Of a DNA stretch of 64,000 nt, positions 365 through 51,627 are shown one piece after another. The position numbers were made by a program, and so were the translations under genes. The notes under the pieces are model-generated. The model saw nothing but the letters and a program-made list of their open reading frames with translations, did not search any database and had not been told where the DNA came from. This DNA comes from Octopus vulgaris. Lineage: Eukaryota. Position 1 is the first letter of the stretch, and every line of letters starts with the position of its first letter. The stretch lies in NCBI GenBank assembly GCA_951406725.2, contig OX597831.1:7874001-7938000 (forward strand), written 5' to 3'.

Positions 365-890
365 ATGTGTATATTAATCAATGTATGCAGTATTATAGAT
401 CCATTACCACCAGTCATACCAATCAGTTTCACACTGGGGATTAAAACCAGATTTTAAGGCAACAGCATGGTTAAGTAATACTGCATGCTCTTCAGAAATG
501 GCAGGTATGGATAGACTTTTATGATGATATTGTAGGATATCTGTGAGAGGCTGGAGCTGGCCAATTCCAACATATAAACAGGTAAAATATTTTTGGCCAG
601 CTATGGCTGGTCTAAATGCTAATGGGTTAAAGGTGATAGAAACAATATCATTGCAAAAATCATTTATTAGCACTTACTGTACATGAAATAGACAAAGTTA
701 ACATGGAAAAAGGATGAAAAAGAAGAAAAAACAACAAAAACCAATGATATTTACTATCTCTGAAGAGCATGTGGTGTTTCTTAACCATACTGTCAGCTAA
801 CATCCAGTTTTATTACCCAGTGCAAAACTGATTGAGATGATCGTCTGTAATGGATCTATAATACTGTATACTTTGAATGATATATGAATG
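365..890. mobile_element. Inverted pair of hammerhead-bearing PLE-like terminal repeats (arms ~365-505 and ~750-890)
   Basis: The arms are diverged reverse complements; each carries CTGAAGA-GCA...TG(C/T)-(G/A)AAAC. Confidence 0.65.
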
Positions 891-2934
891 TGTGAATGTC
901 TATAGGTTTGTGTCTCCTTGTTTTGGCATTGCATCGTTAATGTTAATGAATGTCATTCATTTTCCTTGAAAGTATGAAATTTTCCTCGGAAACATGTCTT
1001 GCCAAGTGGGTGAGAGGAAATTACCTTATTTGGAAACAGGTATGGGTTGGCTACGAGCAGAACATCAAGCTGTAGAAAATCTGCCTCAACAAATTTCATT
1101 TGACCTTTGCAAGCATGGAAAAGTGGAATTTAAAACGATGATGATGATGATGTTAGTGGTTGTGGTGGTGGGGCAGTGGTGTTTGTACTGTTGGCTTTAA
1201 ATTCCTCGTTGAACAAAACCTTTTTACAAGGAAGTGAAGATAAGCCATCAAAGGAGCCTCTGTATTGTCATTTGACCTTCTAAAAATAGCAGACAGATCA
1301 CCCTCAAATTGCACCTTATATTGGATGTAGTCCTTGATAAAAAAAAAGATGGGAAGGCCATGGCTGGATGGTCTTGGTCATATGTTTACTCAGTCAGGGT
1401 TGATCTAGGGATAAATAAACAAACTCCTGATATATGAAACAACAAAGATTGGTAGTTTGTTGTTGTGTGGTCAGATGACAAGGGGCTGTGATAAGAGGGG
1501 AGACATTGTCCGGGACAGATTCCTCCAACCCATCACCATGATGACGATGTCTACTTTTTGATGCTCGCAAGGTTCACAGGGAATTCATTGAGGTAGATTT
1601 TCTGCAGCTGGATGCCTTTCCTGTTGCCAACTCTAATCTCTTTCCAAGCAAAATGATGTTTCCCTATGGCCAGACATGTTTTTCATGGAAGACTGGAAAC
1701 AAACCACATTGCTTGTATGAAGGTGATGCTTGTTTACAATCAGTACTTGATGTCACGACAAACAAACAAGCAAACATACACGTATGCATAAATATAAACA
1801 TGGATGATGGGATTCTTTTAGTTTCCATCTACCAAATCCACTCTCAAAGCATAGTTGCCATAGAGTAGGATCGAACCCTGAGCCATGTGGTTGGGAGGCA
1901 GCACCTTATAGCCTCACCTGTATATAGCATTTATGATATGTTTACAAATGTGGAACAGCACTAATGGCAATATTTTGTTTGAGAGAAACTTCTCAAAGAG
2001 ATTTGATTGAGAAAGACTTCAGTGCATCTGTAGAAACTGTTATGAAAACAGCCAAGAAGATCCGAAATGTGTAAAGGGGGAGATTTGAGGCCCTGGTTTT
2101 GACAAAATATATGCAACCTGATATTTCTAAATTACCAAATCTCATCAAACACAGTCATTAGTTATTTTTCAAATAATTAAACTTTGTTTTTGGCAATTTA
2201 ATGATTTGTTGAATATTTTGAATTGTTTTACATTTTCAAATTTTATTTTAAAGGGAGCCAAATTCTGATATATGTGTTTTATTTGTTAATTCTCATAATT
2301 AAACTAAAATTATTTTATTTAAAATTTGAATTACAATGTTGCTTTTTGTTCTAAATTTTTTCCAGTTATTTGCACAAATAATATAAATCAAAATATATTT
2401 TCATTGTAAAATTCTTCACTGTTTTTTGTAGAAGTTTCCATAAAAATTTAATATAGTCAGCAATAATCCATACAAATTTCTTTATAAAAGGTAAAACAAA
2501 AAGCCATCTGCTGGATTAGATACTATAAGACAATATGACTAATAAATGACTCAGCAAAATTTGGTTCTACTTGATGAAAATAATCTGATGTCCTTTGGGA
2601 CATATTGTTCTTCAGAATATGGGCAAGAGTAGGGTTGTGTAATGCTATTTGGTAAAAAGGGTGGAGTACAACAAAAGGTTGAGGAATCCCTAGTGTGGAG
2701 GCTACTTCATTGGATCATAAGTATGTTGATACTTTTAGCATTTAATCGTAGATCATCTCTGACTGAGCAGACACTGGATCAAAAGGATATCCTGGCCCTG
2801 ATTACCACTCCCTTGTGTTATTCAATTAGTGTATCCAGGACAACACTTCCTAATGTGTCCTTCCATTTTAGGGAGATTTGGCCACCATTTCTAGCAGGAT
2901 GTCTGATCACATAGGGGTTCTCTCATTGACTTGT

Positions 2935-3010
2935 ACCTTCAGACATTGACCTTCAGACAACAAGATCTCTGTGAAATTGTATGACAAATCTGACGCTATA
3001 AATTTTACAT
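2935..3010 (+). pseudogene. Possible Penelope-like reverse transcriptase remnant (DNKISVKLYDKSDAINF)
   Basis: Resembles the KLYDKRDDFNF motif of PLE RTs; short and frameshifted. Confidence 0.4.
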
Positions 3011-4855: not shown

Positions 4856-5087
4856 TTATTATCTGAAAGTCTTACACCCATAAATAAACATTTTCTTATA
4901 TTATGTATATACATATGAGCCAACCAATAAATTCCGAGTGTAGATGAAAACTGCAGGAAGCCTGTCATTATATGTATGTTTGTTTGTTTGCCTGTCCTGT
5001 TCATAAAGTCAAATGCATAATGTGTGTACCTATAAATGTGTGTGTGTATATATACATATATATATATAAATATTTGTTTAAATTAAA

Positions 5088-5623
5088 GTGAGAGATGGAA
5101 TGTAGAAAACAAGAGAATCTTTATTGGTCATTACAATTGTTTGGACTCATCTAGCATCGATCCCTTGTGGATGGGATTCTGAACATCTGGTTTAGGTGTA
5201 TCCCTCAGTGTAGATGTGTCTCCTCAGGTTATTTGAATACGTATCTCCTTAAAATTTCTGTTTCACATGATTTCTTCTTGCCCTTCATACATACAAATGG
5301 CAAATTAATATCTAATACGTTTTTTCACTTTGTTGTGTATTTGTTTCTTTTTGTATCTGCTCTTTGTTATTGATCTTCTATAAGAATGAAGCAGTATCCC
5401 TTAATTTGCCATTTCTAACTTTGAAGACAAAGAAAAAAACATTCAGTAACAAGTTGTATGAAACCGAGTTTATTTTAATGAGAATACCTCTTGAAATACC
5501 TGTGGAGAAACATCTACACCTAAACCAGTTGTGCAGAAACCCAACCATTGAGGGATGCTAAGATGGGTTGAAACAGTTGTAGTGATCAATGAAGATTCTT
5601 GTATTTTGCATATTCCATCTCAC
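5088..5623. mobile_element. Inverted-repeat element (~150-bp arms 5088-5240 and 5488-5623) with decayed hammerhead 3' halves
   Basis: The arms are reverse complements; GAAAC-AGTT-GTA-GTG at 5570-5584 and its mirror at 5129-5144. Confidence 0.65.
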
Positions 5624-5999
5624 ATTAATCAAATACTCAATGAACACTGGCACAGTGTATGTGATTTACTGGCAAACTATCAGATCTATACCATGTGATT
5701 TGTTAGCTAATAATATAAGCGTATATATGATCAAGCAGATTCCAATTTCTGTGTGTATGCGTGTCTATGGATATAATTTTGAAATGTCTACAGAAAAATG
5801 ATCTTACATAACTATTCAAAATGTGTGTATTAAATGCATTCAAAATATCATCTTTTGGTTTTGTGATTCTTGTTTGTGTGTGTGTGTGTGTGTGTGTGTT
5901 GATAAAATTAAATGTTATATTGTCACAAGGTGGTGCATGTTGACACATGAAAGATTTAATTTTATCAAGATATTCTTGGCCAGAAGAGTAGTCAGTGGT

Positions 6000-7490: not shown

Positions 7491-8359
7491 ATATCAATTA
7501 AGACCAAAGAAGCATTTGTTTTGTTTCCCATCTTGAAATATAAGATTTGCGTTCCAATTTAACACACACACACACATACATGCTCACACATATGTATGTA
7601 TATATTTATTTACATATTTATATACATTATATATACACAAACACACAAATGCATACAAGCATGTACATATACACCAAGTGAAATGCATGCACAAAGAGAT
7701 AAGAAACATGTTAACAAAAACCTAACAGAGGCCTTGAAGCTGGCTGAGATGAATGAAAATCTTTGCTAATGATCATTTTGTAAAGGTAATAAATCGAAAA
7801 AACCTCCTCATACTCTGGTGATTACTTTGGTGAACTTGGGCAAGTTTTCAAATCAAATTATGTGTTGCTTAATGTTAAAACATTTTTGAAAAACAAATAT
7901 TGGAAGCAGACGAGTGAATTAGATTTTTTGACAGCTTAATTCTGTGTAATCAATACTGGCTACTTAATTTCATTTACCTTGGCTACTCTTATTGTGGAAT
8001 TCAATTTGTGTATCTAACGTTCGCCTCTTCTCTTTATCTGATTCTGTTGTTTCTCAAGAAAACATCACTTGATGCATTTTATTTTGAAATGCTTTCTCTT
8101 CGCTCCCCCTCCTCTCCAATTCTGACTTTTATTTGACTTTCTGTCATTTGTCTTTTACAAAAATCAGCAAATTACAAATTTCAAATAATGAGAGAAAAAA
8201 ATGTGTCACTTTCTGTAATTTTGGAATTTTTTTCTCTAATATTTTTAATGAGTAAGAAACTTGATAATCTAAGTGAAAAACTTGTTTCTTACCTTCAGAA
8301 TTTGAATGGAAACATTGTATGTTAAGAATATTAATAAGGAACTTATATTTTCTCTTCAG

Positions 8360-8501
8360 AAGCAGCTGTAAGGCGTCGCCTGGGATTACTTAAACTTCAC
8401 AGCATGAGCCATGTCTTTAAAGAACTCAAGAGATCAGCTGAAGATACTTATAAACCTATAAAAGATTGGATAGGGTCTCGATTTCTGACACAAATAAAAA
8501 G
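8360..8501 (+). CDS. SPEF2: SPEF2 exon: (E)AAVRRRLGLLKLHSMSHVFKELKRSAEDTYKPIKDWIGSRFLTQIK
   Basis: ttctcttcag acceptor, AG|gtaagc donor; resembles SPEF2 FRLELIK...WLGERYL segment. Confidence 0.88.
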
Positions 8502-11500
8502 GTAAGCCGTTTCATTTGTTCAAAAATATTTTCCTGATTTTCTATTCTTATGTTCTCATTTTGTGATTTTCTGTTTAAAATGTTACCCCCATATGAGATG
8601 CAGTTAAAAAAAATAATTGACTGAGAGCTAATTATTACTAAATTTTTAAAAAAATACTTTATTCTAGTATTGACCAAATGGCAGGATTGATGAAGAATGC
8701 AATTGAAAATGGTGATAAACTTGAGAAAGAACTTATACTCGATAATGGAGACTTTTATATCGATGAAGTAAGTTAAATTGTTATTATATTCATCAACCTC
8801 AACATTTAATGTCCATTTTCCATGCTGACATGGGTTGAATGGTTTGACATGGAACCGGTCGGCTGAGAGCTACCTGGGTCCCAGTTTTCTGTTTTGGCAA
8901 GGTTTCTATGACTGGATGCTTTTCATAATGTTAACCACTCTACAGAAGGTAATAAGTGCTTTTAAGCAGCACCAGCAAGTGGGGGTGCAATGGTCCAGTG
9001 GTTAGGGCAGTGGACTTGCGGTCGGAAGATCGCGATTTAAATTCCCAGACCGGGCGTTGTGTGTGTTTATTAAGCGAAAGCACCTAAAGCTCCACGAGGC
9101 TCCGGCAGGGGTGGTGGCGGCCCCTATTGTACTCTTTCGCTCCAACTCTCTCTCACTCTTTCTTCCTGTTTCTTGTCCCCGACTTCCTACGCAACCGCTG
9201 AGCCTGGATGTGCATTCATCCATCTGTCGATGCTCTCGGTCTCGGGGGTTTACCTGCTTTCTCTTCTGCGGGTCTTACGAATAGCAAAGGACGACGTTTC
9301 GGACTTCTCCCATCTTGCGAGCTCTGGGACGAAGACCGTTCACTCAACAGCAACAGCAGCACATGTGCTTTTATGTGGTACCAGCGCCTATGGGCCCACA
9401 AAATTGGGATCAGACAGCTAAAGAGGGATCCAGGAGACATGCTTGTATGCAAGGACAACCACCATTTTACTCAGCTCGATGTGTCTTCTCAAGAAGTCAC
9501 CAGAAGTCTTGGTTCCTTGTCATCTCTTCGGTGAGGCCCAACATTTGAAGATCCTTTCTCACCACTTTGTCCCACGTCCTTCTGGGTCTACTCCTTCAAC
9601 ACATTGCCTCCACCATTAGAGACTGGCATTTCTAGTCTTCTTTGAAGAATATGCCTGGCCTTGGAGAAATATTCCCTTGCTTGCAAACAGGTGAGGGTTG
9701 GGGCCAGGAAAAGCATTCAGTCATAGAAAGTCTACCTGACATTCTCAAGCATGGAAAAGTGGACATTAAATAATAATGATGATGATGATGATGATGATGA
9801 CAACGACCATCATCATCATCATCACTATATTGTATTTTCTTCAATGTCCAAGGAATCTATATAATAATCTACTTGTTTGTTCACTCATTATATATTAGTT
9901 AGTTAGAGAGGTGGAGGTGGAAGGCAGGGGGAGCTGGCAGAAACGTTAGCACGCCGGGCAAAATGCTTAGTGATATTTCATCTGTCTTTGGGTTCTGAGT
10001 CCAAATTCCACCAAGGTCGACTTTGCCTTTCTTCATTTTGGCGGGGTTGATAAATTAAATACCAGTTGTGTACTAGGGTTGATCTAATTGACTGGTCCCC
10101 TCCCCCAAAATTTTTGGGCCTTGTATCTAGAGTAGAAAAGAGAGAGAGAGAGAGGACGAGTGAAGAAAGAAGAGAGGAAGAAGTAGAGAAAGGTGATAAA
10201 TATTAAAACACTTGGACCAAATGGCCACATGACCAGCTGAAGGTGGAGGTGAAGAAGAAGAGAAAAAGAGGAGAGAGAAGTGTTAAGGAGATGCAGTGGG
10301 GTGGGGGGAAGCAGTACTTATTAACATGGTTAAAAAGTTAGCTGAAGGGAAAGATAGAGAGAGAGAGAGGGACAAGGGAGGCAGTGGTATTGAGAGAGAG
10401 AGAGAGGCAGGTAGCGGTGGTGGTTGTGGTGGTGTGTTGATAGTGAAAAGTTTTTTTTTTTTTATAGTGACCATCACTATAAAAATGCAATTATTTATTT
10501 TCTGCTCATTAAAAAAAATTGATATTTGTTTATAAAGGTTAATTTAGCTTAAACTCGGGATTCACGAGAAACCCAATTGCAAGCTGCCCGAGGAAGGATG
10601 TGCAGATATAGAGCAGGGATCAGAGAGGAACAGCAAGAAGATATAATAAAAAGAGGGAAAAAACAACACTGAGGAATTACAACCGTGTTTCGTGGTCTGC
10701 TACCACAACAGCTCCTTTATAGGATCCAGTTAGCTCAAGACATCATCAGGAGGAACCACGTCCGGTTTTGGCCCCTACTCCTCTACCGTTTTGACGTGGC
10801 GGGGCCCCCCTTTCGGAGGTGTCTTCAGCTCTGGTGTTAGGTGCATGTCTTCTTTCTTCTCTTCCCTGGCCTCTTCGATGTATCGTCAGCGAGTGTCAGC
10901 CGGTGACTGACTGACTTGTCAAATTTTTCCCTTTAAATACCTGCCACTAGGCTCCAGCAGGCAGCCCCAGCAAGTTGTCACGTGACACTGTCTCACCTTA
11001 ACTGACTAGTGAAGGCGCGTAGTTTTAGCCCGCACTTTTTCTAAACGACCGTCACCTGTCAGTCAGTGAAGCTGATTCAGTCAGCTAGTCTCACCTAATG
11101 ATGTTATTTCCCGTCAGCGTGTTTATGACTTTCAAGCCATTTTCAGTCTTCCCGCTTCAGCCATATATAGAAGCTGGCTTTTTCGACCGCCTCCTGTACT
11201 CTCCTTATTAGTTTACGCAGCTCGGGGCTAGAAAAAACAAATCTTCTTTTGAATAGCATTGTCATTTTCTTTTCAATGAAGCCTCTAGCCCCCACTGCCA
11301 GGAGACGGGAGGAAATGAATGTAGACAAACGTGGAGAATATTTAATAAAAGGCTAAACTATGAAGGCTATGGAAATGCAAATCATCTTTTCTTTCTCAAA
11401 CAGGTCCTGTTAATTTTTTTGCATTCCATAGAATTTCCATGAGTCCTGCTAGTATTATATAACTTCCTTATAGGTTTCTCTATTGTGAAATAATAAATGA

Positions 11501-11738
11501 TAATTGGATCATTATTGATTATTGCCAGGAATATCTGACACTGAAGCAGACCACTCCAGCGCCAACCCCAGAATTTACAGAATACCATAACAATCAAATG
11601 ACGTGTGTTCAATTATCAGCATTCTTGACACAGGTGAGTCCAGGTGGAGTGTTTGTCTCATGTCTCGAGACGAATTTTCCTTTTTCTTTTTAATTATATC
11701 TTTAGATTTTTCATGAGAACGGTTTACAGGATGAGGGG

Positions 11739-11778
<40 letters not shown>

Positions 11779-19943: not shown

Positions 19944-19975
<32 letters not shown>

Positions 19976-19977
19976 CA

Positions 19978-20017
<40 letters not shown>

Positions 20018-21842: not shown

Positions 21843-21887
<45 letters not shown>

Positions 21888-30458: not shown

Positions 30459-30490
<32 letters not shown>

Positions 30491-30630
30491 CGGAGTAAAC
30501 ACATAAATGTGAAACAAGGTGGAAAAAAAGAGTACTCAAATACCAGTGGTAGAGTAATATGCTTTATTTAAAGCAGCAGAAAATTCAACAAAACCTAGGT
30601 TCTGTTGAATTTTCTGCTGCTTTAAATAAA

Positions 30631-30676
<46 letters not shown>

Positions 30677-30900
30677 TTAAATACATGTGTGCACACAAAC
30701 ATACAGACACATATGGGAATAAAAAAATACACATGCCTAATGAGGAATATGATGAAGTAAGGGGGAGACTGACAAGTAAATCAAATGGTTGAAAAAAGCA
30801 TAAGTATATGAAATGAAACAATAACAATTTAGGGTCTGTCTGTCTTATCTTCAACATCCTTATGAAATTGTCCATGCATTCTTTTGTCATCATCATCATC

Positions 30901-30932
<32 letters not shown>

Positions 30933-31176
30933 ATCATCATCATCATCATCGTCATCATTATCATTGTTACATCCGAAATGCAACAAGCTAGCAGAACCAT
31001 TAGCATGCCAGTGACATTTCTTCTGGTTTTGTGTCCTGAGTTCAAGTTCTACTATGGGGAGTTCTGCCTTTCACTCTTTTTGGGCCATTGAAATTAATAC
31101 CAGATGAGCCCCTCAGGTTGATGTCAACATCTAACCCTCTCTCTAGCCCCCCTCTCTCTTTATTTCTTTTCCTATT

Positions 31177-31241
<65 letters not shown>

Positions 31242-33799: not shown

Positions 33800-33869
<70 letters not shown>

Positions 33870-33929
33870 TACATATATATATGTATGTATGTATGTATAT
33901 ATGATTAATATGAAGCATTTATTATTATC

Positions 33930-33961
<32 letters not shown>

Positions 33962-33962
33962 C

Positions 33963-34020
<58 letters not shown>

Positions 34021-37000: not shown

Positions 37001-38119
37001 CTCTTATATACTTAATGTAATTTAACCAAAAGATTTTTTAGTCAATTAAAATTCTACCTGTAATGAAGAGAAATGTCATTAGCATTAACCCTTTCATTAG
37101 CATATATCTGTTGAGAAACAGTACTGTTGTTTTAATTAATTTTGTAAATAATGGAAAATTTAGTCAAATAAATGCCATCCTAAGCTGCCGTTTGGAACAA
37201 AAATTAGCATGGAATCTTGATGAAACATTTTAATTAAGATCAATTTAAAAGGGGAAGTTTGTATCACAGAGCCAGGGGGGAAGTGTTAGATAGTTAGGTA
37301 TCAAAAAGGTTCTAATGAAAATTCTTTGTGAAAAAGACATGGCTAGGTGTCAGCATGTCTGTGAGGGTAAGAAGTTTGCTTCACAGCAATATGGCTTTGA
37401 GATCAATCCCACTGGGTGGCACCTTGGGTAAGTGTCTTGGAACTGACCAATGCCTTATGAGTGAATTTAGGAGATGGAAACTGAATGAAGCCGGTCATGT
37501 ATTTATGTCCCCTACCACTGCTTTGCAACTGCTTTTAATGTGTTTACATCCCTATAACTTAGTAGATTGTCAAAAGAGATCAATAGAATAAGTAACAGGC
37601 TTTAAAAAAAAGCCTGGGGGTTGATTCATTCAACTAATAATTTCTCACTACCCTGAGATACATTTGCGATGCATGAGTAAACTCAGGATAATCCATTAAG
37701 GGATTAAAAATCCTAATAGCTCCATTTATATATTCATAATGTCTCTCACCGGCTCCCTTTGTCTTTGCATAACTTTGTCCATCACATCCTGTACATTTTA
37801 CTTTATAAAGAACCCAAGTGAATGTTTTGTATTTATCTTTTCAAACCCTTGTGGCTAATAAAGAAAAGATGATCATCATAATCATTGCCATCATCATCAT
37901 CATCATCATCATCGTCATCATCATCTTCATTGTCATCATCAGTACTATTTTAAATCTATATATCAAATCCTTCATATAAATGCTCTAAATTTTGTTCTGA
38001 AGTGGTCTTAACTAATTCTTTTATACTTTGAATAAAAATGTTTAAATCACTTACTCTTATATATACTATATATATAAATAAATATATATACATATATACA
38101 TGCAATATATATATACATG

Positions 38120-38206
<87 letters not shown>

Positions 38207-41200: not shown

Positions 41201-44189
41201 TGTGTGTGAACATTATGATGATGATGATTTTTATCCACTACACTAACAATTCACTCCCCCCCCCTGTTCTGCTTGTCAGCAATACACCACAGCAAAGAGG
41301 TTGAGTTCTTTGATTTGTTGAGAAGTAAATGGAACCATCAAATATTGCGATAAGTTGAGTAGGGAAATCAATAAGAGTTAGTGTGGCTGCTAGAAGTCAG
41401 GATAATGATTCCATTATCACAATGAAGAATTACTTCTGGTTTGTGTCGAACTGTTTGAAGTAGCAAGCAGTAAAATCTTTCAAATGTGTATAATTCTTGG
41501 AGATAAACATGAATTTTGTGGGATAAATTGAGTTTGAGCAAACGTAAAGACAATTACGGTAATTCCTTAATCAGGAAAGTGCATAGAACCAGGACTGTAG
41601 CTTAACTTTGGTTTGAGTGAATGAAGAAGAAATGAATATATTCTTTGCAATTCTTCCCGTTATTAGCATTATTCAAGGATAATTGACATTTGCAATTATT
41701 ACTAACAGGAGGTTGGTGCCACTAGAAAAGAAAAATTAAAGCAGATTCTGTTAGTTTTTGGCAAATGTGTAGCAGTAGCCAGTTGTGTGTGTGTGTGTGT
41801 GTCTGTCTCCGCCCGTCTGTCCTTTGTCATTGCATTTCAGTGAAAGATGTCAATACTGGCAGGTGTGATATTTGTTCTGCCCAAATTACACAGGTGCTTC
41901 CTTATCATTCCCCACCATCCAAAACAAGTGTTTACTTCATTGAGAACCTGTAAACGATGGCAATTTTGTTCAAATATCAAAATGTTGTAGAAAAAATGAT
42001 AAATAAAAAGTTTGTTACCAGCAAAAAGCAGGAGTGAAGAGGAGAGTCATAGCTTGCTGTGTCTTGGTTTCCCCAATCAGAGAAAAGGTAAGGCCCTTAA
42101 GGACTCCTCTCTGTAGGTACAACAAGCGTAGCTGTGTGGTTAAGAAGCTCACTTTGTAACTGTGTGATTTGGGTTCAGTCCTACCACATGGCACTTTGAC
42201 CAATTGCCTTCTACTCTTACCTTGGCCTGACCAATGCTTTGTGAGTAAATTTGAATGATGGAAACTGTGGAAGCCCATATGTGTATGTGTGTCTTTGTGT
42301 TTGTCTCACCCCACCACCACCATCAGCACCACTTGACAACTGGTGTTGGTTTGTTTAAATCTCTGCAATTTAGCAGTTCAGCAAAAGACACTGATAGAAT
42401 AAAAGTCAGACTTAATTACATAAACCATAAGTACTGGGGTTGATTTCTTCCACTAGACATATTAAGGTGGTGCCCCAGCATGGCCAAACCCTAATGACTG
42501 AAACAAGTAAAAGCTAAAACGGCCATTGCATATGTGGAATGAAAGTGTACTTTGCATCTGCTTTTGAGGAACCAAAACTGAGTTCTTGGTTGATTCCACA
42601 CTGAAGAAAGAATTGGCAACGAAAACTGGAGCATTCCAAGAATGAAGCACCAGGCTAAAAGACATTCATTTCATCTCAGTTCCCTCAGAGTTTGAATATT
42701 ATCTAGCGAGGTCGTCGCCAGTGCTGCTGGACTGGCTCCTGTGCAGGTGGCACGTAAAGAGCACCATTTGGGTGTGGCCGTTGCCAATACCACCAAACTG
42801 GCCCTCGTGCCGGTGGCACATAAAAGCACCCACTACACACTCGGACTGGTTGGCGTTAGGAAGGACATCCAGCTGTAGAAACTCTGCCAGATCAGATTGA
42901 AGCCTGGTGCAGCCATCTGGTTCACCAGACCTCAGTCAAATCGTCCAACCCATGCTAGCATGGAAAGCAGATGTTAAATGATGATGATGAGGTTTCCTCA
43001 TTGAGGGATTGATAAAAGAAGGGCTGTTAATTTGCTGACATTGGCTCAGTTGGCCCTCACAGTGGTTGGCTTTGTTCACAAGTAAATATTAAAACAAAAA
43101 AAAATCAACATTGTATTGAATTTGTCAGATGGAAACTATTTGGAAGCCCATCATATACCTGTATGTGAATGTGTGTGTGTGTGTGTTTGTGTTTCTCCTC
43201 CCACCACTTAATGGCCAGTGTTGGTTTGTTTACATTCATGTAACATAATGGTTCGGCAAAAGACTCATTTTGTAGCAGTGCTCCAGCATGGAGGGCTACT
43301 GCAGTCCAATGACAGAAACAAGTAAAAGATAAAAGATAATATTTTAAATGAAGTCACTGTGGTTTGTGTAAGAGGCTCAAAGTAAATAAGAAAGAAAAAA
43401 AATATTTGAAGACAAAACAAATGAAGGGAGACAGGTAAATCAATCATTTTAAAAATAAATAAAATAAGACAAGACAAAAGTGTGAATCTCGTTATTTGTT
43501 GATGATTAGAGAGGAAAAGATTATGAATGCTTGTGAAATTCAAATGTCTATTTTCTATTTTTCTAGGTTCTCAATCATGGTGAACCACCTGGCAATAGTT
43601 TCATTGAGAAAATTGATTCTTTTGAAGCAGTTTCCATGGTAAGAGACTTGTTGCAGTGCTTTCCCTGTTATATTTAAGAGTTATCGCTCTATTCATGCTA
43701 TCGTATCATTTTTCACTCTTCTTCCATGGTATCAGGCTTTGCTATCCCACAAGGTTTCAGATTGGATAGTTTTGGCAGAAATGTTGCAAAAAAGCTGCTG
43801 CAAGGCACCACTAATTGTCTGCGATTCCTGTGAAAAGTGCTGAGTCTCAAGAGAGATAATTTTCCTTGTCTTGAAAGCCATGCAGAAATTTACTGATGTG
43901 CTTGGTGGCAGAGATAATGGCAGCGGCGGCAGTGGTGGTGGGGGTGGAGGAGAAGGCAGTGGCGATGGTGGTGGAGGAGGAGGTGGTGGTGATTGGTGTT
44001 TAGATCAAGAAGTAGATCCAGGTTCTTCCTCCCATGACCATCCTGTCTTTTTTGTATATCGGGGACTATATTGTCCAGTAGCATGTCACTATATTGTCAC
44101 AGTAGCATGTGATTTATGGAAATTTAGCTGCTATTTCTACTGGGTCAAGCAAATATATAGATGTTCTTTAATTGGCTCAGCAGCTTTAG

Positions 44190-44237
<48 letters not shown>

Positions 44238-44717
44238 GACAGAGAGAACGAGAGGTGTTTCAATTTTGAAGAATCTCCAGGTAAAAAGAGTTCTGATAAT
44301 TTGTCCATTTTCTGATTGCAGAATGAAATATTAGGTGTTTATCAAGATGTTGGATCTGTGAATGCTGAACCAATTCCATTTGAAACTCTAATTGCACATC
44401 CTTTCATACAAGATATCATTGCAAAAGGCAACCAATTCTTGATGCTGGTAAGATCTCTCTCTTTCTCTATCTCCCTTTCATTCTCTCTTTCTATCTCCTC
44501 TTTCTCTTTCATTCTCTCTCCTCTCCTCTCTTATTCTCTCTTTCTCTCCCTTTCATTCTCTCTCTCTCCTCTTCTCTCTTATTCTCTCGCTTTCTCTTTC
44601 TCTCTCTCCCCCTCTTTAAAACTCTACATACACTTTAATTCTTTTTTTTTCTGCTTCATTTAGCCATCCTTCTTCCTTTATTTTTTACCTCCTCCTCATC
44701 TCTTCATCTCTCTATGC

Positions 44718-44748
<31 letters not shown>

Positions 44749-45168
44749 GCCTCTCTTTCTCTCTGTCTCCATCTTCCCATTGTCCTCTTTCTTACATTTT
44801 GCTTTTATCTTTCTATGTTTCCTTCTCCCTGTGATTCCTCCTCCCCTTCCGTCCCCTCCTCCCTGTATCCTTCGTTCTCTCTCTCTTTCGCCACAGACTT
44901 CATTCAGATCTACTCTTGCAACAGAATTGCTTCTTCACGTCTTCACTATTCATTTCAAATTCAAACTCTCATTCCCACCAAATATTCTCAAGAAATTATT
45001 ATCTCCCTTGTATTAACCAACCACTAGGTGACACCACATGATGTAAATTGTTTGACGATATAAATGGGAGTTGATAACTCTGTGATGTGCTGCACTGACC
45101 ATTGGTGGCTAGGATGGGTATGTGGCTTGGAAGAAGGTTTCCTTGCAAACTACAAGGCAAAACCCCAT

Positions 45169-45207
<39 letters not shown>

Positions 45208-45706
45208 TGCTCCACTCTAGCTGACAGCTATATACCATTTTGACAAAGATAGAAGAGCCTTAGTTCAAGACATTCCATTCCATTATATTTCTTTTCTGAG
45301 GAAACGGTTTTGGTTTTTTTATGTCACTGTCTCCAAGAAGTGTCCGTTTGATATTTATTGCATTTTAAACTGAAAATTATTAGACAAAAAGAGGACATGT
45401 GGAAATGGATCAAAATATGTTTACCTGGCAGAGTTTCACTATGAACGCATGTGTCTCTTTGGAGAGACTTCAATGTAATGGCTTCTTCTTCTTCTTCTTC
45501 TTCTTCTTCTTCTTTTGTCTGTGTGTCCTCGATTCCCATTCCCCCCATCCCATACCCTTTCATCATATTATTGATTTATCATAAATAGCTGTCTTATAAT
45601 GTTTATCCAAACAAATCTTATCGCTTATCTATTTCAGGACATCAAAAATATTTTGTACAACTCTCCAGAAACTTCTGACCTCAATGCAAGCTGCAAATTG
45701 AAATAA
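8360..45706 (+). CDS. SPEF2: Sperm flagellar protein 2 (SPEF2/KPL2), 3' portion; 11 coding exons joined 8360-8501, 8668-8767, 11529-11633, 14461-14589, 17139-17333, 18772-18912, 22770-22900, 29189-29405, 43567-43638, 44322-44447, 45638-45706
   Basis: All introns are GT...AG with consistent phases (1427 nt, one open frame ending TAA). The translation aligns collinearly with the SPEF2 C-terminus as I recall it: WIGSRFL~WLGERYL, APLGFISTKSF~APKGIIGNKAF, NTDFIDWRRF~NSEFVDWRKF, PPSLNYEKMLLYFC~PPQLDYTQMLLYFA, EGFTRALS~EGVYRALS, HPFIQDII~HPFIQDLI, DIKNIL~DIKIIL. Confidence 0.93.
8668..8767 (+). CDS. SPEF2: SPEF2 exon: (S)IDQMAGLMKNAIENGDKLEKELILDNGDFYIDE
   Basis: ttattctag acceptor, gtaagt donor, phase 2 matches the previous exon; resembles IQNELYLSQEDFFI. 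Confidence 0.9.
8981..9310 (+). mobile_element. tRNA-derived SINE family D, near full length
   Basis: A-box-like tggtccagtggttagg and B-box-like ...attcccag; copies at 23438 and 27137 (-). Confidence 0.85.
9335..9620 (-). mobile_element. RTE-clade LINE 3' remnant
   Basis: Reverse complement resembles the RTE 3' segments at 24400-24760 and 30100-30270. Confidence 0.55.
9928..10140 (+). mobile_element. SINE family B
   Basis: gagctggcagaaacgttagcacgccgggc...aggtcgactttgccttt. Confidence 0.85.
10540..11330 (-). mobile_element. 5'-truncated non-LTR retrotransposon with restriction-like endonuclease (HERO-like): ORF end plus 3' UTR
   Basis: ORF 11143-11328 LAVGARGF...KLIRRVQEAVEKASFYIWLKR resembles the C-terminal VG(A/C)RGF...E.AS.W.W.KR signature of RLE-type elements; GC-richer UTR follows. 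Confidence 0.7.
11529..11633 (+). CDS. SPEF2: SPEF2 exon: EYLTLKQTTPAPTPEFTEYHNNQMTCVQLSAFLTQ
   Basis: attgccag acceptor, CAG|gtgagt donor, 105 nt phase 0/0; Pro-rich stretch then T.xQL as in SPEF2. Confidence 0.82.
13060..13480 (+). pseudogene. Degenerate APE-type LINE (CR1/Jockey-group) internal fragment
   Basis: C/T-rich coding-like sequence with an NPDGTAV motif; highly decayed. Confidence 0.35.
13990..14290 (+). mobile_element. tRNA-derived SINE family E
   Basis: ggtgcatggtgcagtgg...gagttcaattcct...tgttccagtccactcagctg..aaatgagt; copies at 34900-35178 (-), 26525 and 48955. Confidence 0.7.
14461..14589 (+). CDS. SPEF2: SPEF2 exon: FQLVAPLGFISTKSFQETLEDLVSTSHGISALPELWMQPNFAR
   Basis: ttgcttccag acceptor, gtaaga donor; APxG...DLV...PxxWM motif. 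Confidence 0.92.
15063..15179 (-). pseudogene. Possible Ty3/gypsy gag remnant (EPVDEYIASLQKLVLDWKFQ)
   Basis: Resembles the E.V..Y...L..LA..C.F motif of retrotransposon gag. Confidence 0.4.
15575..15903 (+). mobile_element. SINE family A with internal ~60-bp tandem units
   Basis: Three gtgcc.gtg.ca.gt units, then the aagggcatc...(GAT)n tail. Confidence 0.88.
16272..16667 (+). mobile_element. Non-autonomous Helitron
   Basis: A|TC 5' end, subterminal hairpin ccc(a)agc-aac-gctggg, CTAG|T 3' end, no TSD; second copy at 62507-62903. Confidence 0.88.
17139..17333 (+). CDS. SPEF2: SPEF2 exon: VQQNIQILAKKISSNTDFIDWRRF...DVNKTGFIDYEMFNS (EF-hand-like)
   Basis: catttcag acceptor (alternative in-frame CAGs end at 17147 and 17156), gtaagt donor; DWRxF motif. 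Confidence 0.9.
17663..17873 (+). mobile_element. piggyBac-like MITE
   Basis: TTAA|CCCTTTAGCATT...AATGCTAAAGAG|TTAA; a 3' fragment of the same family lies at ~520-626. Confidence 0.8.
18130..18348 (+). mobile_element. SINE family B inserted into a family C SINE, with 17-bp TSD
   Basis: GGAAACTGTGCAGAAGC duplicated at 18113-18129 and 18349-18365. Confidence 0.9.
18772..18912 (+). CDS. SPEF2: SPEF2 exon: VPLWPEEDIKKHNESYNFDRSSKLKEIFFDLFTEFNTQPPSLNYEKM
   Basis: tctttcaacag acceptor, ATG|gtgcga donor; FxR..L.E.FF.LF...PP.L.Y..M motif. Confidence 0.9.
19700..20035. repeat. (ACT/ACC)n trinucleotide microsatellite
   Basis: Direct reading; the poly-Thr, Val, Tyr/His ORFs are artefacts. Confidence 0.97.
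20560..20956 (+). mobile_element. SINE family A
   Basis: Tandem units plus aggaagggcatccagctgtagaaac...(GAT)n tail. Confidence 0.88.
21885..22410 (-). mobile_element. Two tandem related PLE-pLTR-like fragments between (TA)n tracts
   Basis: aatatggtacttaa...gtgattataatcaaaa...catgctacttca.ttattaaacac occurs twice (~21955-22170 and ~22267-22400). Confidence 0.45.
22770..22900 (+). CDS. SPEF2: SPEF2 exon: LLYFCSKPSMFEGFTRALSLSCIANSIRDKGLSAISASQFPIE
   Basis: Pyrimidine tract plus AAG acceptor, gtaagt donor (phase 2); LLYF...EG..RALS motif. Confidence 0.9.
23255..23337 (+). ncRNA. Minimal type-I hammerhead ribozyme with intact core, in a PLE-like pLTR (23150-23387)
   Basis: CTGATGA 23261-67; helix II GAAGGC/GTCTTC with nested gcata/tatgc and cctaatt/aattagg; GAAAC-ATAT-GTC; tctt/aaga helix I; AATAAA at 23337. 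Confidence 0.8.
23438..23660 (+). mobile_element. Chimeric SINE: family D head plus family C tail and poly(A)
   Basis: 23438-23594 matches the 8981 copy; ctaaaggcggtgccccagcatggccgcagtcaaatgactgaaacaag matches the end of the 32173 copy. Confidence 0.8.
23815..24760 (+). pseudogene. RTE-clade LINE reverse transcriptase C-terminal remnant
   Basis: LEVVHSFRHLGD, ARIRIGWAK, KGRLYDACVRTAMLHGKETWAVT...ERNEANMLRWMC; frameshifted. Confidence 0.9.
24828..24966 (-). ncRNA. Degenerate hammerhead motif
   Basis: Minus strand CTGATGA-AGTGGC...GCTACT-GAAAC-ACGT; the cleavage triplet and helix I are not intact. Confidence 0.45.
25215..25469 (+). mobile_element. SINE family A
   Basis: Same tail and (GAT)n end. 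Confidence 0.85.
27137..27462 (-). mobile_element. SINE family D
   Basis: Reverse complement of 8981-9310. Confidence 0.88.
27957..27991 (+). ncRNA. Minimal hammerhead variant in a (TA)n-flanked PLE-like fragment (27886-28091)
   Basis: gttt-CCGACGA-A-GAGC-tcc-GCTC-GAAAC-GTT-aaac. Confidence 0.65.
29189..29405 (+). CDS. SPEF2: SPEF2 exon, acidic E/A/P-rich linker: ADIPKIVMEAPKEEVTEAEASQAEAPEVPEVDK...LIPIGAILK
   Basis: Pyrimidine tract plus taag acceptor giving phase 2, AAG|gtgggt donor; occupies the position of the acidic low-complexity region of SPEF2. Confidence 0.82.
29689..29804 (-). ncRNA. Minimal type-I hammerhead ribozyme with intact core and long helix II insert
   Basis: Minus strand tcac-CTGATGA-tgtgca...tgctca-GAAAC-AATT-GTT-gtga. 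Confidence 0.75.
29925..30458 (+). mobile_element. RTE LINE 3' end running into the family A tail
   Basis: tggatgtccaatgtcagtg...tggtatggtcatgtgatgc shared with 24260-24560, then aggaagggcatc...gttaaatgatgatg. Confidence 0.8.
30490..30631. mobile_element. (TA)n-embedded repeat ending in a 70-bp fold-back palindrome (30562-30631)
   Basis: Arms are reverse complements with one mismatch and no loop; a related fragment lies inverted at 46215-46280. Confidence 0.85.
32173..32577 (+). mobile_element. Full-length tRNA-derived CORE-type SINE (family C)
   Basis: A-box-like gtggccgtgtggtaag, B-box-like ggttcagtcc, core tgggcaggtatctt, tail ...tgactgaaacaagt; many partial copies elsewhere. Confidence 0.9.
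33543..33596 (+). ncRNA. Type-I hammerhead with full helix III and a G5A core change
   Basis: ttccta-CTAATGA-AGCTA-cggaat-TAGCC-GAAAC-TGA-ccga-TCA-GTA-taaggaa, between ~65-bp direct repeats. Confidence 0.65.
34900..35178 (-). mobile_element. SINE family E
   Basis: Minus strand ggtgcatagctcagtggttagag...gagttcaattcct...ttgagcaagacac. Confidence 0.75.
37089..37309 (+). mobile_element. piggyBac-like MITE, second family
   Basis: TTAA|CCCTTT start; related pieces at ~50056-50190 and ~52600-52768. Confidence 0.6.
39195..39693. mobile_element. DNA-transposon-like repeat interrupted by a family A SINE (39368-39596, minus)
   Basis: Flanks match the inverted uninterrupted copy at 56880-57155. Confidence 0.7.
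40818..41110. repeat. 293-bp near-perfect palindrome (arms ~143/140 bp, 10-nt spacer 40961-40970)
   Basis: Arm-by-arm reverse complement comparison. Confidence 0.95.
42705..42990 (+). mobile_element. SINE family A
   Basis: Tandem units plus tail. Confidence 0.85.
43567..43638 (+). CDS. SPEF2: SPEF2 exon: VLNHGEPPGNSFIEKIDSFEAVSM
   Basis: ttttctag acceptor, ATG|gtaaga donor, phase 0/0, fits between flanking exons. Confidence 0.75.
44322..44447 (+). CDS. SPEF2: SPEF2 exon: NEILGVYQDVGSVNAEPIPFETLIAHPFIQDIIAKGNQFLML
   Basis: tgattgcag acceptor, CTG|gtaaga donor; QD.G..N.EPI...L..HPFIQD motif. Confidence 0.93.
45638..45706 (+). CDS. SPEF2: SPEF2 terminal coding exon: DIKNILYNSPETSDLNASCKLK*
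   Basis: ctatttcag acceptor, DIK.IL motif, TAA at 45704-45706. Confidence 0.88.
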   Translation, partial: DIKNILYNSPETSDLNASCKLK

Positions 45707-48649: not shown

Positions 48650-48960
48650 TTTCTCTAAGTGGCTTTGGAGAAAGGAGCTGTGTCCATGGCCAAGTCCACC
48701 TTGACCAATGACAACGTTCTTTTCGAACCTTTGTAAGTCAACATCTGAGGGAAAGACATGAATAGAAAGAAGGGCCAACAGTGTGAGAAATGAGGTGGAC
48801 TGGGGTGTGGTAATTACTGTAGGGTCTGAGAAATTAGACATAGCAAGGTTGATGAGGTGAGGATGGATGAACGAGTCAGGAACACCTGAATGGTGAAGAT
48901 GGGTATAAGCTCAACCAGTTCTGTGGAGCAGAGGCCATTATGGTAGTGGTAGAAAAGGTG
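48650..48960 (-). pseudogene. APE-type LINE (CR1/Jockey-group) ORF2 3' remnant
   Basis: LFYHYHNGLCSTEL...TRSS...VFPSDVDLQRFEKNV. Confidence 0.65.
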
Positions 48961-51586
48961 CATGGCCTCCTGGTTAAGGTGTTGCACTCCTGATTGCATG
49001 GCTTATGCTTTGGATTCCCAGAAGAGGCAGTGTGTTGTGTTCTTGAGGAAAACCACTTCATAGGTATGATAAATATGATCATATTTGATCAAGGATGACC
49101 TGGGGCTAAACAACATCTACAAATAAAGAAGTATCTAAAGCACTCCAAGACAAGAAAAGCTTTGAGCCTCTGGGACTTTCACTGATATTTTGGTTTTAAA
49201 ATTCCTTTGCAATACCTTAAAAGGGAACAACTATATGCAAATACTAGAAATAGCAACCAAATTGTGCTCAAATTATATCCTCTTGAATAATGAAGAACAC
49301 ATTGGATGATGTAGTCTTAGATGTACTTATTTCTGACTAAAATAGACATGGTCAAAAGCATCTTTCTATGATCACCAACCTGGTTGATCATTGCCTGCCC
49401 AGGGTTAAACAGCAACTGAATCTGCCACAGCTTTTCTAGCCCTGTACAAAGCATTGTTTTATTTTCGCTGAAGTGTACTTTGCCTTTCATCTGTTTGAGA
49501 TTGATAAAATAAAGTACAACTCAAGTACCAGTCCCTCTCCACCCACCCCCCACTCCACAGATATGGTGCAGGCATGGCTGTGTGATTAAGAAGTTTTCTT
49601 CCCAACCAATTGATCCTAGGTTCAAGTGTACAACACTGCATCTTGGTAAACCCAGGGCTTTTAGCATAGCCTCAGGTGGATCCATGCACTTTGAAGGAAA
49701 TTCGGAAGATGGAAACTGTACAGAATCATGTCTTGTGTGTGTGTGTGTGTGAAAGATGTCCACATCAGTAATAAAGTGTCAGGGAATCGGTGCATGGAAC
49801 CAAATTTCCATCCACATATCCAAGACACTCCCTGTTGCTCTCTGGCTTCAATGCAATGAACCAGTGATTGGTTCAACCTCTTACCAATTATGATGCCATT
49901 GTTCAGGCAATAACCATTCATTTATTTATGTTATTGAATCTGTAATCCAAAACTCTCATCTTTTGTCAGATCAGTCACTAATTTATAAATAATGAACTAC
50001 CCAGATGGTAACCACATTCTAATAATGTGTGCTTAAGCAAACAGAGTGAAGTATTTAAACCATTTTGTTACCATATATCTGTCAGAATACACTGACTGTT
50101 TCAAATAATTTTGAGAATAATGATATATTTAGTAAAATAACTTTGCCTTTATTAAACTGATGTTTGGAAAATAAAATAAAATAAAATAAATGAGAATAAG
50201 TTGATAGGCTCTGAGAGTATATTTCAGGACAGACATCTCAACAAAAGAACTTTTGATTTTACTGGTTCTGTAAAACAAATCAAACAACTTTTGTATTGTT
50301 TTGTAATATTTTTTGAAGAAGTCTTCATTTTTTTCATCTTTTTTCTTCAGTTCTGGCTGAATCAAATTTTCATTTTTCTCAAGATATTATAACATCAGTG
50401 AATAAATTTGTCTACAGACAATTGGTTTAGAAACGTCTCATGAATTAAAGTAATTTCTTTTAAACACACATCTACTATGTGAAACAGGCTTGGCTGTGTG
50501 TTTAAGAAGCTTGTTGGGGGAAACTACAGGGTTTTGGATTCTGTCCCACTGCATGATATCATGGGCAAGTGTCTTCTACTACAGCCCCAAGCCTACCAAT
50601 CCCTTGTGAGTGAATTTGCTTGATGGAAACTGTGTGGAAGCCCATAGTGTGTGAGTATCTGTCTTTGTGTTTGTCACACCACCTCTTGACTACTAGTGTA
50701 AGTTTGTTTCCATCCCTGTGACTTAACAGATCAACAAAAGCAACTGATAAATTATATACCAGACTTTTAAAAAAATATAAGTCCTGGGGTTGATTTATTC
50801 AAGTAAAATCCTTCAAGGCAGTGCCCCAGCAAGGCCACATTCCACTGACTGAAGCAAAAGTTAGCCCAAATCTGGTACAAAATTACCATTTTCTTCAGTT
50901 TCCATTGTAAGCTGCGATTACCATGTTTGTGGAACTTTTCACAACAATTGCAGCCACAGAAGAAATTTTCACTGAAATCAAAAATAAGGTCTCATGTTTT
51001 CAACCCTTTCATCTTTTTTTTTCTTATCTCTGTTGCAACCTGATAAACTCACCATGATTTTATTGAAGAAATTGATTGATTCTTGGTGGTGCTTTGATAC
51101 AACACAGATATCTCTGTGAATGTCTGATTGTTGTAGTTGTTCTATTTTCTATCCATCAAGTTCAACTGAACTGCTTCTGCTTCTGCTATCAGATTAAACA
51201 CTTTATAATTGTCACACAAATACGACTTTGACAGGAAACCTCATATGAAATGTGTAGCTTATCAAGAATTGACTGAGATTCGGATTAATGGTTGAAATGC
51301 CAAATGTGTTTTTGGTTCCTATTATACGAACATAGCTTCTTAATTCAAAGAGTCAACAAGCCCATCGAAGAATTTCTAATGATGCTAAGATAAAATATTT
51401 GTTTTTCCTTGTCATATTTAAACTTGTGAACTCAAAGTCTGGTTCACTTGGCATTCTAAATGTAATCACTTTTATCTCTACAGATTTTCTATAGAATTTA
51501 AAGCTAACACTGAAAGTTACAATGTTATGTATACAAATACGTCTCTGTAAATAATGCAACCGAAAGTAGAAAAGTAGGTAATGGGT

Positions 51587-51627
51587 GTATATGCATATTT
51601 CAGGGGACATTGCCCTTTCGTCAGTGC
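51587..51627 (-). ncRNA. Minimal hammerhead motif
   Basis: Minus strand gca-CTGACGA-AAGGG-caatgt-CCCCT-GAAAT-ATGC-ATA-tac. Confidence 0.6.

Follow-up and report, generated by a model that had tools for sequence, protein, structure and literature searches.

The hammerhead-like motifs scattered through a 64,000-nucleotide stretch of Octopus vulgaris DNA (the window) are very probably decayed copies of ten dispersed hammerhead families, three of which were shown to form the 3' ends of Hydra-type Penelope-like elements (PLEs), an origin that the rest likely share. The copies are predicted to leave the RNA of SPEF2, the gene in which most of them lie, uncut. Family membership, PLE endonuclease or reverse transcriptase (RT) genes upstream on the same strand (three families), TA-repeat flanks (two young families), inverted pairs, damage to individual copies and a similar density elsewhere were observed directly.

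Hammerhead families in and around SPEF2

Exon mapping of protein P0010 placed the last ten coding exons of SPEF2 on the plus strand at 8359..45706 (8359-8499, 8666-8767, exons beginning at 11529, 14449 and 17136, 18760-18978, one beginning at 29190, 43567-43638, one beginning at 44322, and 45626-45706). Because the start of the gene is no less than 142 kb upstream of the window, positions 1-8358 are intronic too. An earlier note on this DNA had placed the motifs mostly inside SPEF2 introns, and eight of the nine hammerhead cores do lie there; the ninth, at 51587, is beyond the stop codon (~45706). The motif coordinates given in that note were also correct.

Twelve of the 13 motifs belong to the ten repeat families, other copies of which carry the hammerhead letters. 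They had been described as unrelated, which does not hold for two inverted pairs. One pair consists of a Hydra-type PLE 3' end remnant at 366..516 (minus strand, antisense to SPEF2; core 495-417), with complete core letters, a broken first helix I pair and a helix II span of ~57 nt, and a 78% alike copy at 745..886 (plus strand, sense, SPEF2 intron; core 760-836), which is predicted dead owing to G12A and the loss of U16.1; at position 12 of this family, A is commonest and G occurs in some copies. The other pair (73% alike), previously taken for halves, comprises two complete copies, one at 5080..5295 (minus; hammerhead 5227-5132, helix II span 77 nt, predicted dead owing to G12C) and one at 5442..5642 (plus, sense; core 5500-5581, with A6U and an altered loop).

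A young Hydra-type PLE 3' end between TA repeats (23150..23386, plus, sense in a SPEF2 intron; core 23261-23333) has complete core letters, a helix II span of 54 nt and a palindromic AUAU loop, together with a C-A mismatch at the first helix I pair, beside the cut site, where 98 of 100 listed family copies carry G. At 23671..23771, two hammerhead-bearing ends are joined back to back as a palindrome; the minus arm (core 23725-23691) carries U4C and A6G, and the plus arm (23730-23762) is degenerate too. The cleavage triplet is deleted in an old Hydra-type PLE end at 24793..24996 (minus, antisense; core 24960-24828), whose family has a helix II span of ~106 nt. A very young short element between TA repeats (27885..28095, plus, sense) contains a truly minimal hammerhead at 27961-27987, with a CCGA (U4C) core, an additional A following A9, helices I and II of 4 bp each, an ACGU palindrome and a GUU triplet. 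The copy at 29655..29815 (minus, antisense to SPEF2; core 29800-29693) has a complete core, an intact helix I and a helix II span of 89 nt (104 in the family), and is the sole window copy with a canonical core to pass a relaxed hammerhead descriptor. A copy with a 68-bp internal direct repeat at 33421..33793 (plus, sense; core 33549-33589) is predicted dead owing to G5A and G10.1A, and its family has a full intramolecular helix III. At 51511..51711 (minus, outside the SPEF2 coding span; core 51624-51588), complete core letters and the palindrome UAUGCAUA are accompanied by a broken first helix I pair.

Two further motifs had been termed halves. The old repeat at 40633..40770 (plus, sense) does keep the 3' half alone (GAAAC-AGCU-GUA at 40705-40716), a block present in all seven aligned copies (six identical, one with a single change); a downstream CUGNNGA-like word, considered as evidence of a scrambled-order hammerhead, is private to the window copy, and that reading was rejected. 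The 62335 motif (62270..62420, minus) belongs to a dispersed repeat that is not a hammerhead, its GAAAC-AC-GUA having been created by a deletion and being absent from the repeat's seven other aligned copies.

The type-I order (CUGANGA, GAAA, NUH, helices I-III) was found in nine families, in complete-core copies or majority letters. Full core letters are kept by 4 of the 12 window copies (415, 23255, 29689 and 51587), three of them with the first helix I pair broken. Family-level palindromes spanning 15.2-16.2 and loop 3 are AUAU, AAUU, ACGU, AGCU, AUGCAU and UUCGAA, with a normal helix III instead in the 33543 family; all those named earlier were found (AUAU at 23255, AAUU at 29689 and 5129, ACGU at 27957 and 24828, AGCU at 40705 and UAUGCAUA at 51587). 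The term minimal suits the short helix II (12-16 nt span) of 27957, 23690, 33543 and 51587, though not the full helix III of 33543; the 23255, 755, 5129, 29689 and 24828 families have helix II spans of 54-106 nt and are therefore not minimal hammerheads.

These long helix II inserts take on a rod-like fold (z -2.6 to -5.8, from the majority-letter strings of four families). Consensus folds of the old families were weak in RNAalifold (-0.4 to -5.5 kcal/mol), as expected of decayed copies. Comparison of the 23255 family with a sister family revealed compensatory changes in helices I and II, with two pairs altered on both sides and 93% of cells paired against ~40% for slid partners; the double-change count was matched by 133 of 500 shuffles and, as it derives from two related sister copies, represents about one event per pair.

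Abundance in the window and across the genome

Considered alone, the window showed no excess over shuffled sequence at the strict descriptor setting (0 matches against 0 in 30 shuffles) or the loosest, the relaxed settings giving 1, 1 and 3 matches against shuffle means of 0.07, 0.2 and 2.3; an initial descriptor lacking the extra nucleotide after A9 gave 0-1 matches across four settings. Single window copies fold like shuffles (z -1.7 to +0.5), the Rfam hammerhead family, proposed earlier as a check, is absent among the 150 of 158 window matches listed at E<=10, and 62335 is indeed spurious, all of which would suit chance matches in AT-rich, repeat-rich DNA. Against this, family copies keep the full core, and in six families the core letters are conserved at least as well as their neighbours (0.88-0.94 against 0.80-0.90; equal in the 5129 family). 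Exact family patterns recur by the thousand, against zero matches for reversed controls, and genome-wide pattern matches numbered 30,410 against 2,479 with the reversed pattern, a 12-fold excess. A chance origin is refuted for 12 of the 13 motifs, and as a general explanation its probability is negligible.

In 600 kb of blind-chosen DNA, 14 strictly intact hammerheads were found against 0, 0, 0, 1 and 0 in five shuffles (mean 0.2), and ~65,000 strict hammerheads (CI 36,000-110,000) were estimated genome-wide. The excess over chance absent from the window is thus present at genome scale, and the family copies and counts uphold the earlier view of a very large, diverse population of type-I hammerheads from the ends of many PLE families. 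The same 600 kb yielded 31 matches from the ten window families and 28 from 20 others, a combined background of ~6 per 64 kb, counting these 30 families alone. Hammerhead density in the window is similar to that in the rest of the genome; the field is not special, contrary to what had been claimed.

Standard annotation misses hammerheads, though tens of thousands are present in the octopus genome: Rfam RF00163 matched only 6 of 73 genome-wide candidates examined, and the main text of a recent O. vulgaris repeat paper is silent on ribozymes (PMC13282606). By title, none of the papers listed on octopus hammerhead ribozymes concerns such elements.

Relationship to Penelope-like elements

In the 23255 family, an RT with a C-terminal GIY-YIG lies upstream of the hammerhead on the same strand, the layout being the GIY-YIG C-terminus, ~500-600 nt of UTR and then the hammerhead; loci L141 and L142 are almost complete, retaining RT and endonuclease and carrying an end in inverted orientation upstream. 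The PLE proteins were not recognised by Pfam, and were identified by motifs, tblastn and comparison with elements described by Craig et al. (2021, PMC8557442). The translations contain a DKT motif and CxxC and CxH in the endonuclease, without CCHH, and insertions lie in (TA)n, with a truncated inverted arm. All of these features, including the hammerhead near the 3' end, are shared with the Hydra clade of C-terminal EN+ PLEs as described in PMC8557442, among them Hydra-1_Obim of Octopus bimaculoides. One difference concerns the CxCX5C linker of Hydra elements, which is present in database relatives P0001-P0009, whereas loci L138, L140 and L144 have an Asn-rich stretch where it is expected before the endonuclease; the family thus appears to be Hydra-like with the linker lost. 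Hydra-type endonuclease remnants were likewise found upstream on the same strand in the 755 (loci L048 and L057) and 24828 (locus L060) families. The earlier proposal that flanks could be linked to PLE ORFs therefore held for 23255, 415/755 and 24828, and for 27957 by relatedness, whilst Hydra- and Neptune-type queries found no such link for 5129, 23690, 29689, 33543, 40705 or 51587.

The 27957 family (13,286 exact relatives genome-wide) occupies 215-250 bp between TA repeats in its ten best copies, with clustered 5' ends, and no ORF was found in a few dozen copies examined out of over 13,000. It aligns with the end of a Neptune family (70-73% over 85-141 nt) in which tandem hammerheads 4.5 kb apart enclose a long ORF. 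In common with Neptune PLEs, this relative has DKG and YIDD in its RT, GIY-YIG preceded by a Cys-rich linker, an endonuclease of CCHH type and a hammerhead without a loop in its tandem pLTRs; it has U at position 6, whereas the 27957 family has the CCGA core in two-thirds of exact copies. The tie to Neptune would thus be one of relatedness, not of a long ORF-bearing copy, and a Neptune ORF 3 kb upstream of one copy (locus L234) proved to be a separate insertion.

Within the 27957 family, 8,880 copies have the U4C core. The family's U4 copies are not mere CpG decay of C4, as 26 U4 against 3 G5A were seen among 100 listed copies and the U4 copies resemble the window copy less closely. Separately, A6U was observed in ~7,000 copies of an autonomous Neptune family (A6 in 158), and altered cores (U4C, A6U) are found in lineages that are young and very abundant. 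Literature searches for A6U hammerheads and for hammerheads with 'extended stem II' found nothing, and 'long helix II' with retrotransposons returned only an RNA-virus study. Lunse et al. are said to have reported PLE hammerhead variants, which may already include ones like U4C and A6U.

We infer that the PLE protein would nick AT-rich DNA and reverse-transcribe from near the RNA 3' end, so that most insertions would retain just 150-300 bp around the ribozyme, would often gain a mirror-image second arm and would then accumulate mutations without constraint. The ribozyme of a source element would act as a dimer, through the palindromic helix III, to trim tandem transcripts, probably with protein assistance; isolated intronic copies would be partnerless and mostly without an intact core.

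It is rather unlikely that most families, instead of being truncated coding-PLE ends, are independent non-coding retrozymes or SINE-like units copied via small (circular) RNAs with borrowed PLE enzymes. Such units would account for the short copies of 27957 with clustered 5' ends, ORF-less among those examined, the full helix III of 33543 and the 68-bp units directly repeated 258 nt apart in its window copy, and the six families lacking an ORF link, and animal retrozymes have been described as PLE derivatives (10.64898/2026.07.22.740005). They would not account for the endonuclease genes joined to three families, the variable 5' reach of older-family copies or the absence of a hammerhead-bearing tandem array among the 85 TRF rows of the window; family loci hold mostly single or inverted copies. 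The two explanations are compatible for some families, most likely 27957 and possibly 33543, and certain ORF-unlinked families may be retrozymes without coding capacity that are mobilised in trans. The earlier characterisation as short non-coding retroelements accordingly fits 27957, but not 23255, 415/755 and 24828, which are ends of protein-coding Hydra-type PLEs that have been 5'-truncated.

The octopus motifs share with the minimal hammerheads described by Cervera and De la Pena (2014, PMC4209133) from metazoan PLE pLTRs the type I layout, a 4-5 bp helix I, a loop 3 that is palindromic or missing, an additional nucleotide following A9 (27957), numerous divergent families within a single genome, and mostly single copies from truncated PLEs, with opposite-strand pairs 100-700 bp apart. 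Helix II differs, being given as 7-8 bp in that study against spans of 46-106 nt in five window families and many others; in File S2 of PMC8557442 it has 7 bp and an 8-nt loop in Hydra-1_oBim and 4 bp and a 4-nt loop in Penelope-1_NV, against 54-106 nt in octopus families. The ~65,000 strict hammerheads exceed the 2,000-9,000 quoted in PMC4209133, where the descriptor differs, and are of the same order as the axolotl's 126,247 (PMC7229834). Animal non-LTR retrozymes (PMC7229834; 10.64898/2026.07.22.740005) are also non-coding and PLE-related with a type-I hammerhead, and their solo monomers are reported as dispersed, introns included (~43% of the Xenopus copies); their defining trait, tandem units each bearing a hammerhead, is absent from the window. 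Amniote intronic hammerheads, such as that of RECK (PMC6155905), share the type-I fold and intronic position but are described as canonical and highly conserved, whereas the octopus copies are multicopy, variable and mostly damaged, so that those in the window do not qualify as domesticated intronic ribozymes.

Predicted effect on SPEF2 and wider meaning

The sense copies had been proposed to cut the SPEF2 pre-mRNA or pair in trans; that they cleave it, alone or with same-family transcripts, and tune SPEF2 output is highly improbable. Seven sense motifs or arms do lie in SPEF2 introns, 23255 has all core letters, its family has 2,054 exact copies of the 3' half, the 13,286 exact relatives of 27957 are possible trans partners, and U4C reportedly keeps some activity (PMC9608096, PMC3088659). 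Five of the seven, however, lack invariant core letters or are halves (755, G12A and no U16.1; 5500, A6U; 33543, G5A; the 23730 arm; the 40705 half), 23255 is mismatched next to the cut site, and no SPEF2-sense copy combines a canonical core with an intact helix I. No second family copy of 23255 or 27957 was found in the 188-kb SPEF2 coding span, what would join a trans dimer is ~4 bp in helix I and a palindrome of 4-8 nt, and the copies appear neutrally decayed. Single minimal hammerheads are reported as inactive and dimers as weak (PMC4209133), and an Anolis PLE hammerhead cuts only with protein and is dispensable for insertion in vitro (PMC11167929). Given that 23255 and 27957 have no cis partner and PLE hammerheads reportedly depend on dimers or on help from a protein, cutting of SPEF2 is not supported.

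Strictly intact copies numbered zero in the 188-kb coding span against 4.4 expected, and one in 314 kb of the wider region against 14 in 600 kb (P about 0.02), a rarity that could reflect selection against cutters. RNA contigs from four runs over 22800-24200 cover the 23255 family, with strand, ends and locus not resolvable from contigs. Judged from their letters, cutting of the SPEF2 pre-mRNA by the window hammerheads is unlikely; the 23255 and 27957 sense copies, each one change off the canonical form, might cut slowly. As the motifs are mostly worn-out element ends with a similar density genome-wide, they are probably without effect on SPEF2.

Hammerheads at PLE ends, in families that are large, varied and mostly solitary, have already been described for many animals, and Hydra elements are known in Octopus, so the finding matters little as framed. 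A more speculative and, in our estimate, doubtful reading is that the octopus genome amounts to a natural mutational scan of Penelope hammerheads, one that favours weak ribozymes. Because an efficient self-cutter severs host pre-mRNAs, introns would be purged of such copies, and elements with a slowed ribozyme, or with helix II as a long protein-binding arm, would therefore spread best; this reading draws on U4C and A6U in the youngest, most amplified lineages and on the intact copies missing from the 188-kb SPEF2 span. Whether PLEs need ribozyme cutting has been raised as a question (PMC8557442, PMC11167929), and the abundant U4C or A6U lineages offer an in-vivo test of it.

Hammerhead motifs and their dispersed families

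The hammerhead motifs of the window, G000:C18:7874001-7938000, designated here by their positions, were found to be correctly placed on re-inspection of the sequence, though on their own they are weak. No hammerhead family was present among the 150 of 158 Rfam matches listed for the window. A descriptor requiring an exact core, with an optional extra base after A9, a helix II of at most 130 nt and a helix III that is short or paired, returned in its strict form no matches in the window and none in 30 local dinucleotide shuffles. Looser settings gave 1, 1 and 3 matches versus 0.07, 0.2 and 2.3 in shuffles. Predicted folding of five window copies did not surpass that of shuffled sequence.

The case for the motifs is made by their relatives. 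Genome searches with each one brought up a dispersed family: 886 candidates for 27957 (98-100% identity in the 40 scored), 2,130 for 23255 (identity mostly 97-99%), 319 for 33543, 603 for 51587, 485 for 755, 16 for 24828, 259 for 29689, 109 for 23690, 1,330 for 5129 and 182 for 40705, many of the last matching an adjacent repeat only. When the 5-12 best loci of each family were aligned, other copies showed the hammerhead letters and helices, and in six families the majority letter was held at all ten core positions in 5-12 of 13-17 rows. Motifs 415 and 755, previously considered unrelated, proved to be one family in inverted orientation, and 5129 and 5570, previously considered halves, are whole ribozymes of another inverted family; 23690 comprises two ends fused back to back. 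After merging, ten families were counted. The supposed half at 62335 was rejected, as 7/7 other repeat copies differ there and the window GAAAC is a deletion junction. A further remnant, the 3' half of a hammerhead family absent from the original list, lies at 22331-22398 on the minus strand and is 79% like the family at loci L188 and L191.

Links to Penelope-like elements and helix architecture

At three genomic loci of the 23255 family (L015, L017 and L022), the end of a GIY-YIG frame is followed by a UTR and the ribozyme on the same strand. A search with this coding piece yielded 989 candidates, with the ribozyme downstream in most of the 25 loci retrieved, and at loci L141 and L142 the greater part of an RT-endonuclease gene is present, with a copy of the 23255 end upstream in inverted orientation. 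The protein shares DKT, CxxC, CxH and the absence of CCHH with the Hydra clade of Penelope-like elements (PLEs), but has an Asn-rich stretch in place of the CxCX5C linker. Between 23255 and a sister family, one helix I pair and one helix II pair had changed on both sides, and 93% of cells were paired versus about 40% for slid partners, only two related sequences carrying such both-sided changes. Hydra-type endonuclease remnants were also located upstream, on the same strand, of 755 (L048, L057) and 24828 (L060). A Hydra element, Hydra-1_Obim, is already listed for Octopus (PMC8557442).

The 27957 unit of 215-250 bp is flanked by TA repeats and can be aligned at 70-73% to the terminus of an abundant Neptune-clade family, in which a related ribozyme lies 280-910 nt downstream in 26 of 30 endonuclease loci. 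At locus L279 (G000:C6:67239001-67249000), two such ribozymes separated by 4.5 kb enclose an open frame of 1,092 codons. L279, L281 and L282 exemplify this abundant young Neptune element, whose copies there combine long open frames with ends in tandem. Among the 27957 copies retrieved, none bore an ORF, and 27957 is probably a non-autonomous derivative. The PLE affiliation envisaged earlier holds for 23255, 755 and 24828 and extends to 27957 only via Neptune relatedness; for six families, searches with Hydra- and Neptune-type queries found no ORF link.

The analysis thus showed a link to PLEs in three families, TA repeats as targets, inverted arms and decay. The PLE endonuclease is described as nicking AT-rich DNA, with reverse transcription starting near the RNA end and usually stopping early, such that a ribozyme-bearing tip is left (PMC8557442, PMC11167929); the unlinked families probably arose through the same nick and early-stopping reverse transcription.

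Not all of the ribozymes fit the minimal form proposed earlier. Helix II spans 54 nt in 23255, 57 in 755, 77 in 5129/5570, 104 in 29689 and 106 in 24828, and 33543 has a normal helix III of 5 bp. Majority-letter helix II inserts of 755, 5129, 29689 and 24828 fold as long rods (z -2.6 to -5.8), and spans of at least 46 nt occurred in over half of 35 descriptor-hit clusters, a few of which are chance matches, in 1.5 Mb of retrieved loci. A direct repeat of 68 bp (82%; 33421-33488 and 33679-33746, 258 nt apart) surrounds the 33543 hammerhead, and permuted 33543 pieces, present at L026 and L032, may reflect a template that was circular.

Other observations were made at the retrieved loci. In L141, a single-exon frame of 335 aa (2418-3422, plus strand), about 1.3 kb from a Hydra-type insertion, resembles an amine G-protein-coupled receptor in its motifs. 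The top Rfam Hammerhead_1 match of the genome search (L107, G000:C5:6546758-6546804; 45.5 bits) is canonical-looking and adjoins fragments of a non-LTR retrotransposon frame.

Density relative to the genome background

The window had been regarded as a dense field; against the background it is not special. Sixty stretches of 10 kb (600 kb in all), picked blind at round coordinates, contained 14 strict descriptor matches versus 0, 0, 0, 1 and 0 in five shuffles. For the whole 2.8 Gb genome this extrapolates to an estimate of about 65,000 hammerheads with intact cores and helices, the 95% interval being 36,000-110,000. A short-helix-II sequence pattern, with pairing unchecked and some overlaps counted twice, gave 30,410 matches genome-wide versus 2,479 for the reversed pattern. 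In the same 600 kb, profiles of the ten window families gave 31 matches and those of 20 other families a further 28, so that a library of just 30 families yields about 6 remnants per 64 kb; the window holds 10 insertions, its families having been picked from the window itself, and its density is near that of blind-chosen DNA. Strictly intact hammerheads numbered zero in the window, zero in the 188-kb SPEF2 coding span (4.4 expected) and one in the 314 kb of G000:C18:7624001-7938000, versus 7.3 expected from the blind sample (P about 0.02, a single post-hoc comparison); this deficit may be regional.

One family (G000:C1, L173, L206), which combines the core CUGAWGA and GAAACAGUW with a 13-nt, AU-rich helix II region, is very common: it made up about one in three of the first 100 short-helix-II matches listed and frequently forms inverted pairs separated by 30-60 bp. 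Its helix II pairing looks weak. Three copies of a very abundant SINE-like repeat, 90-91% alike, are present at 8995-9312, 23438-23588 and 27137-27457, one of which adjoins the TA run ending the 23255 element.

Sense copies in SPEF2 and altered cores

The exon at 29187 matched a single protein, P0010 of Octopus vulgaris (SPEF2 per its source label). Residues 1206-1623 of P0010 mapped to ten plus-strand exons from 8359 to 45706 and 25 more exon matches reach 142 kb upstream, placing the listed motifs in SPEF2 introns as first described, except for 51587 and 62335. At 29190-29426 (plus strand) the exon frame continues beyond the P0010 exon end with similar Ala/Glu/Pro-rich sequence, a possible alternative 5' splice site. 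Downstream of SPEF2, a Lys/Glu-rich, stop-free stretch at 50132-50386 (minus strand) may be an exon of a minus-strand gene.

The suggestion that sense copies cut the SPEF2 pre-mRNA, or pair in trans, fared poorly. Among these, 755 has G12A and lacks U16.1, 5500 has A6U, the 23730 arm is degenerate, 33543 has G5A and G10.1A, and 40705 is half only. The 23255 copy retains its core, but A replaces the G of 98 of 100 listed family copies, breaking the first helix I pair; 27957 has the core CCGA, a change reported to lower activity without abolishing it (PMC9608096, PMC3088659). No second same-family copy of 23255 or 27957 was found within SPEF2, and 29689, the canonical copy in the best condition, lies antisense to the gene. 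In the experiments described in PMC4209133, a single minimal PLE hammerhead did not cleave and dimers cleaved little, and an Anolis PLE ribozyme is described as cutting only with the element's protein, its mutants still permitting insertion in vitro (PMC11167929). Regulation of SPEF2 by these motifs is therefore unlikely.

Altered cores also characterize abundant lineages. Exact matches to the 27957 family numbered 8,880 for the U4C core versus 4,406 for the canonical core, and in a tree of 98 copies U4C marks the youngest clade and also occurs on other branches. For the Neptune relative there were 7,216 exact matches, and of the 100 listed 98 had U6 and none had A6; a form with A6 and a laxer flank gave 158, and U6 copies form a shallow clade nested among A6 copies. 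As changes at A6 are reported to leave low activity (PMC3088659), the abundance of these U4C and A6U lineages hints that strong cutting is unnecessary for spread. The motifs of the window are real, ordinary for this genome, and derive from a known kind of element.
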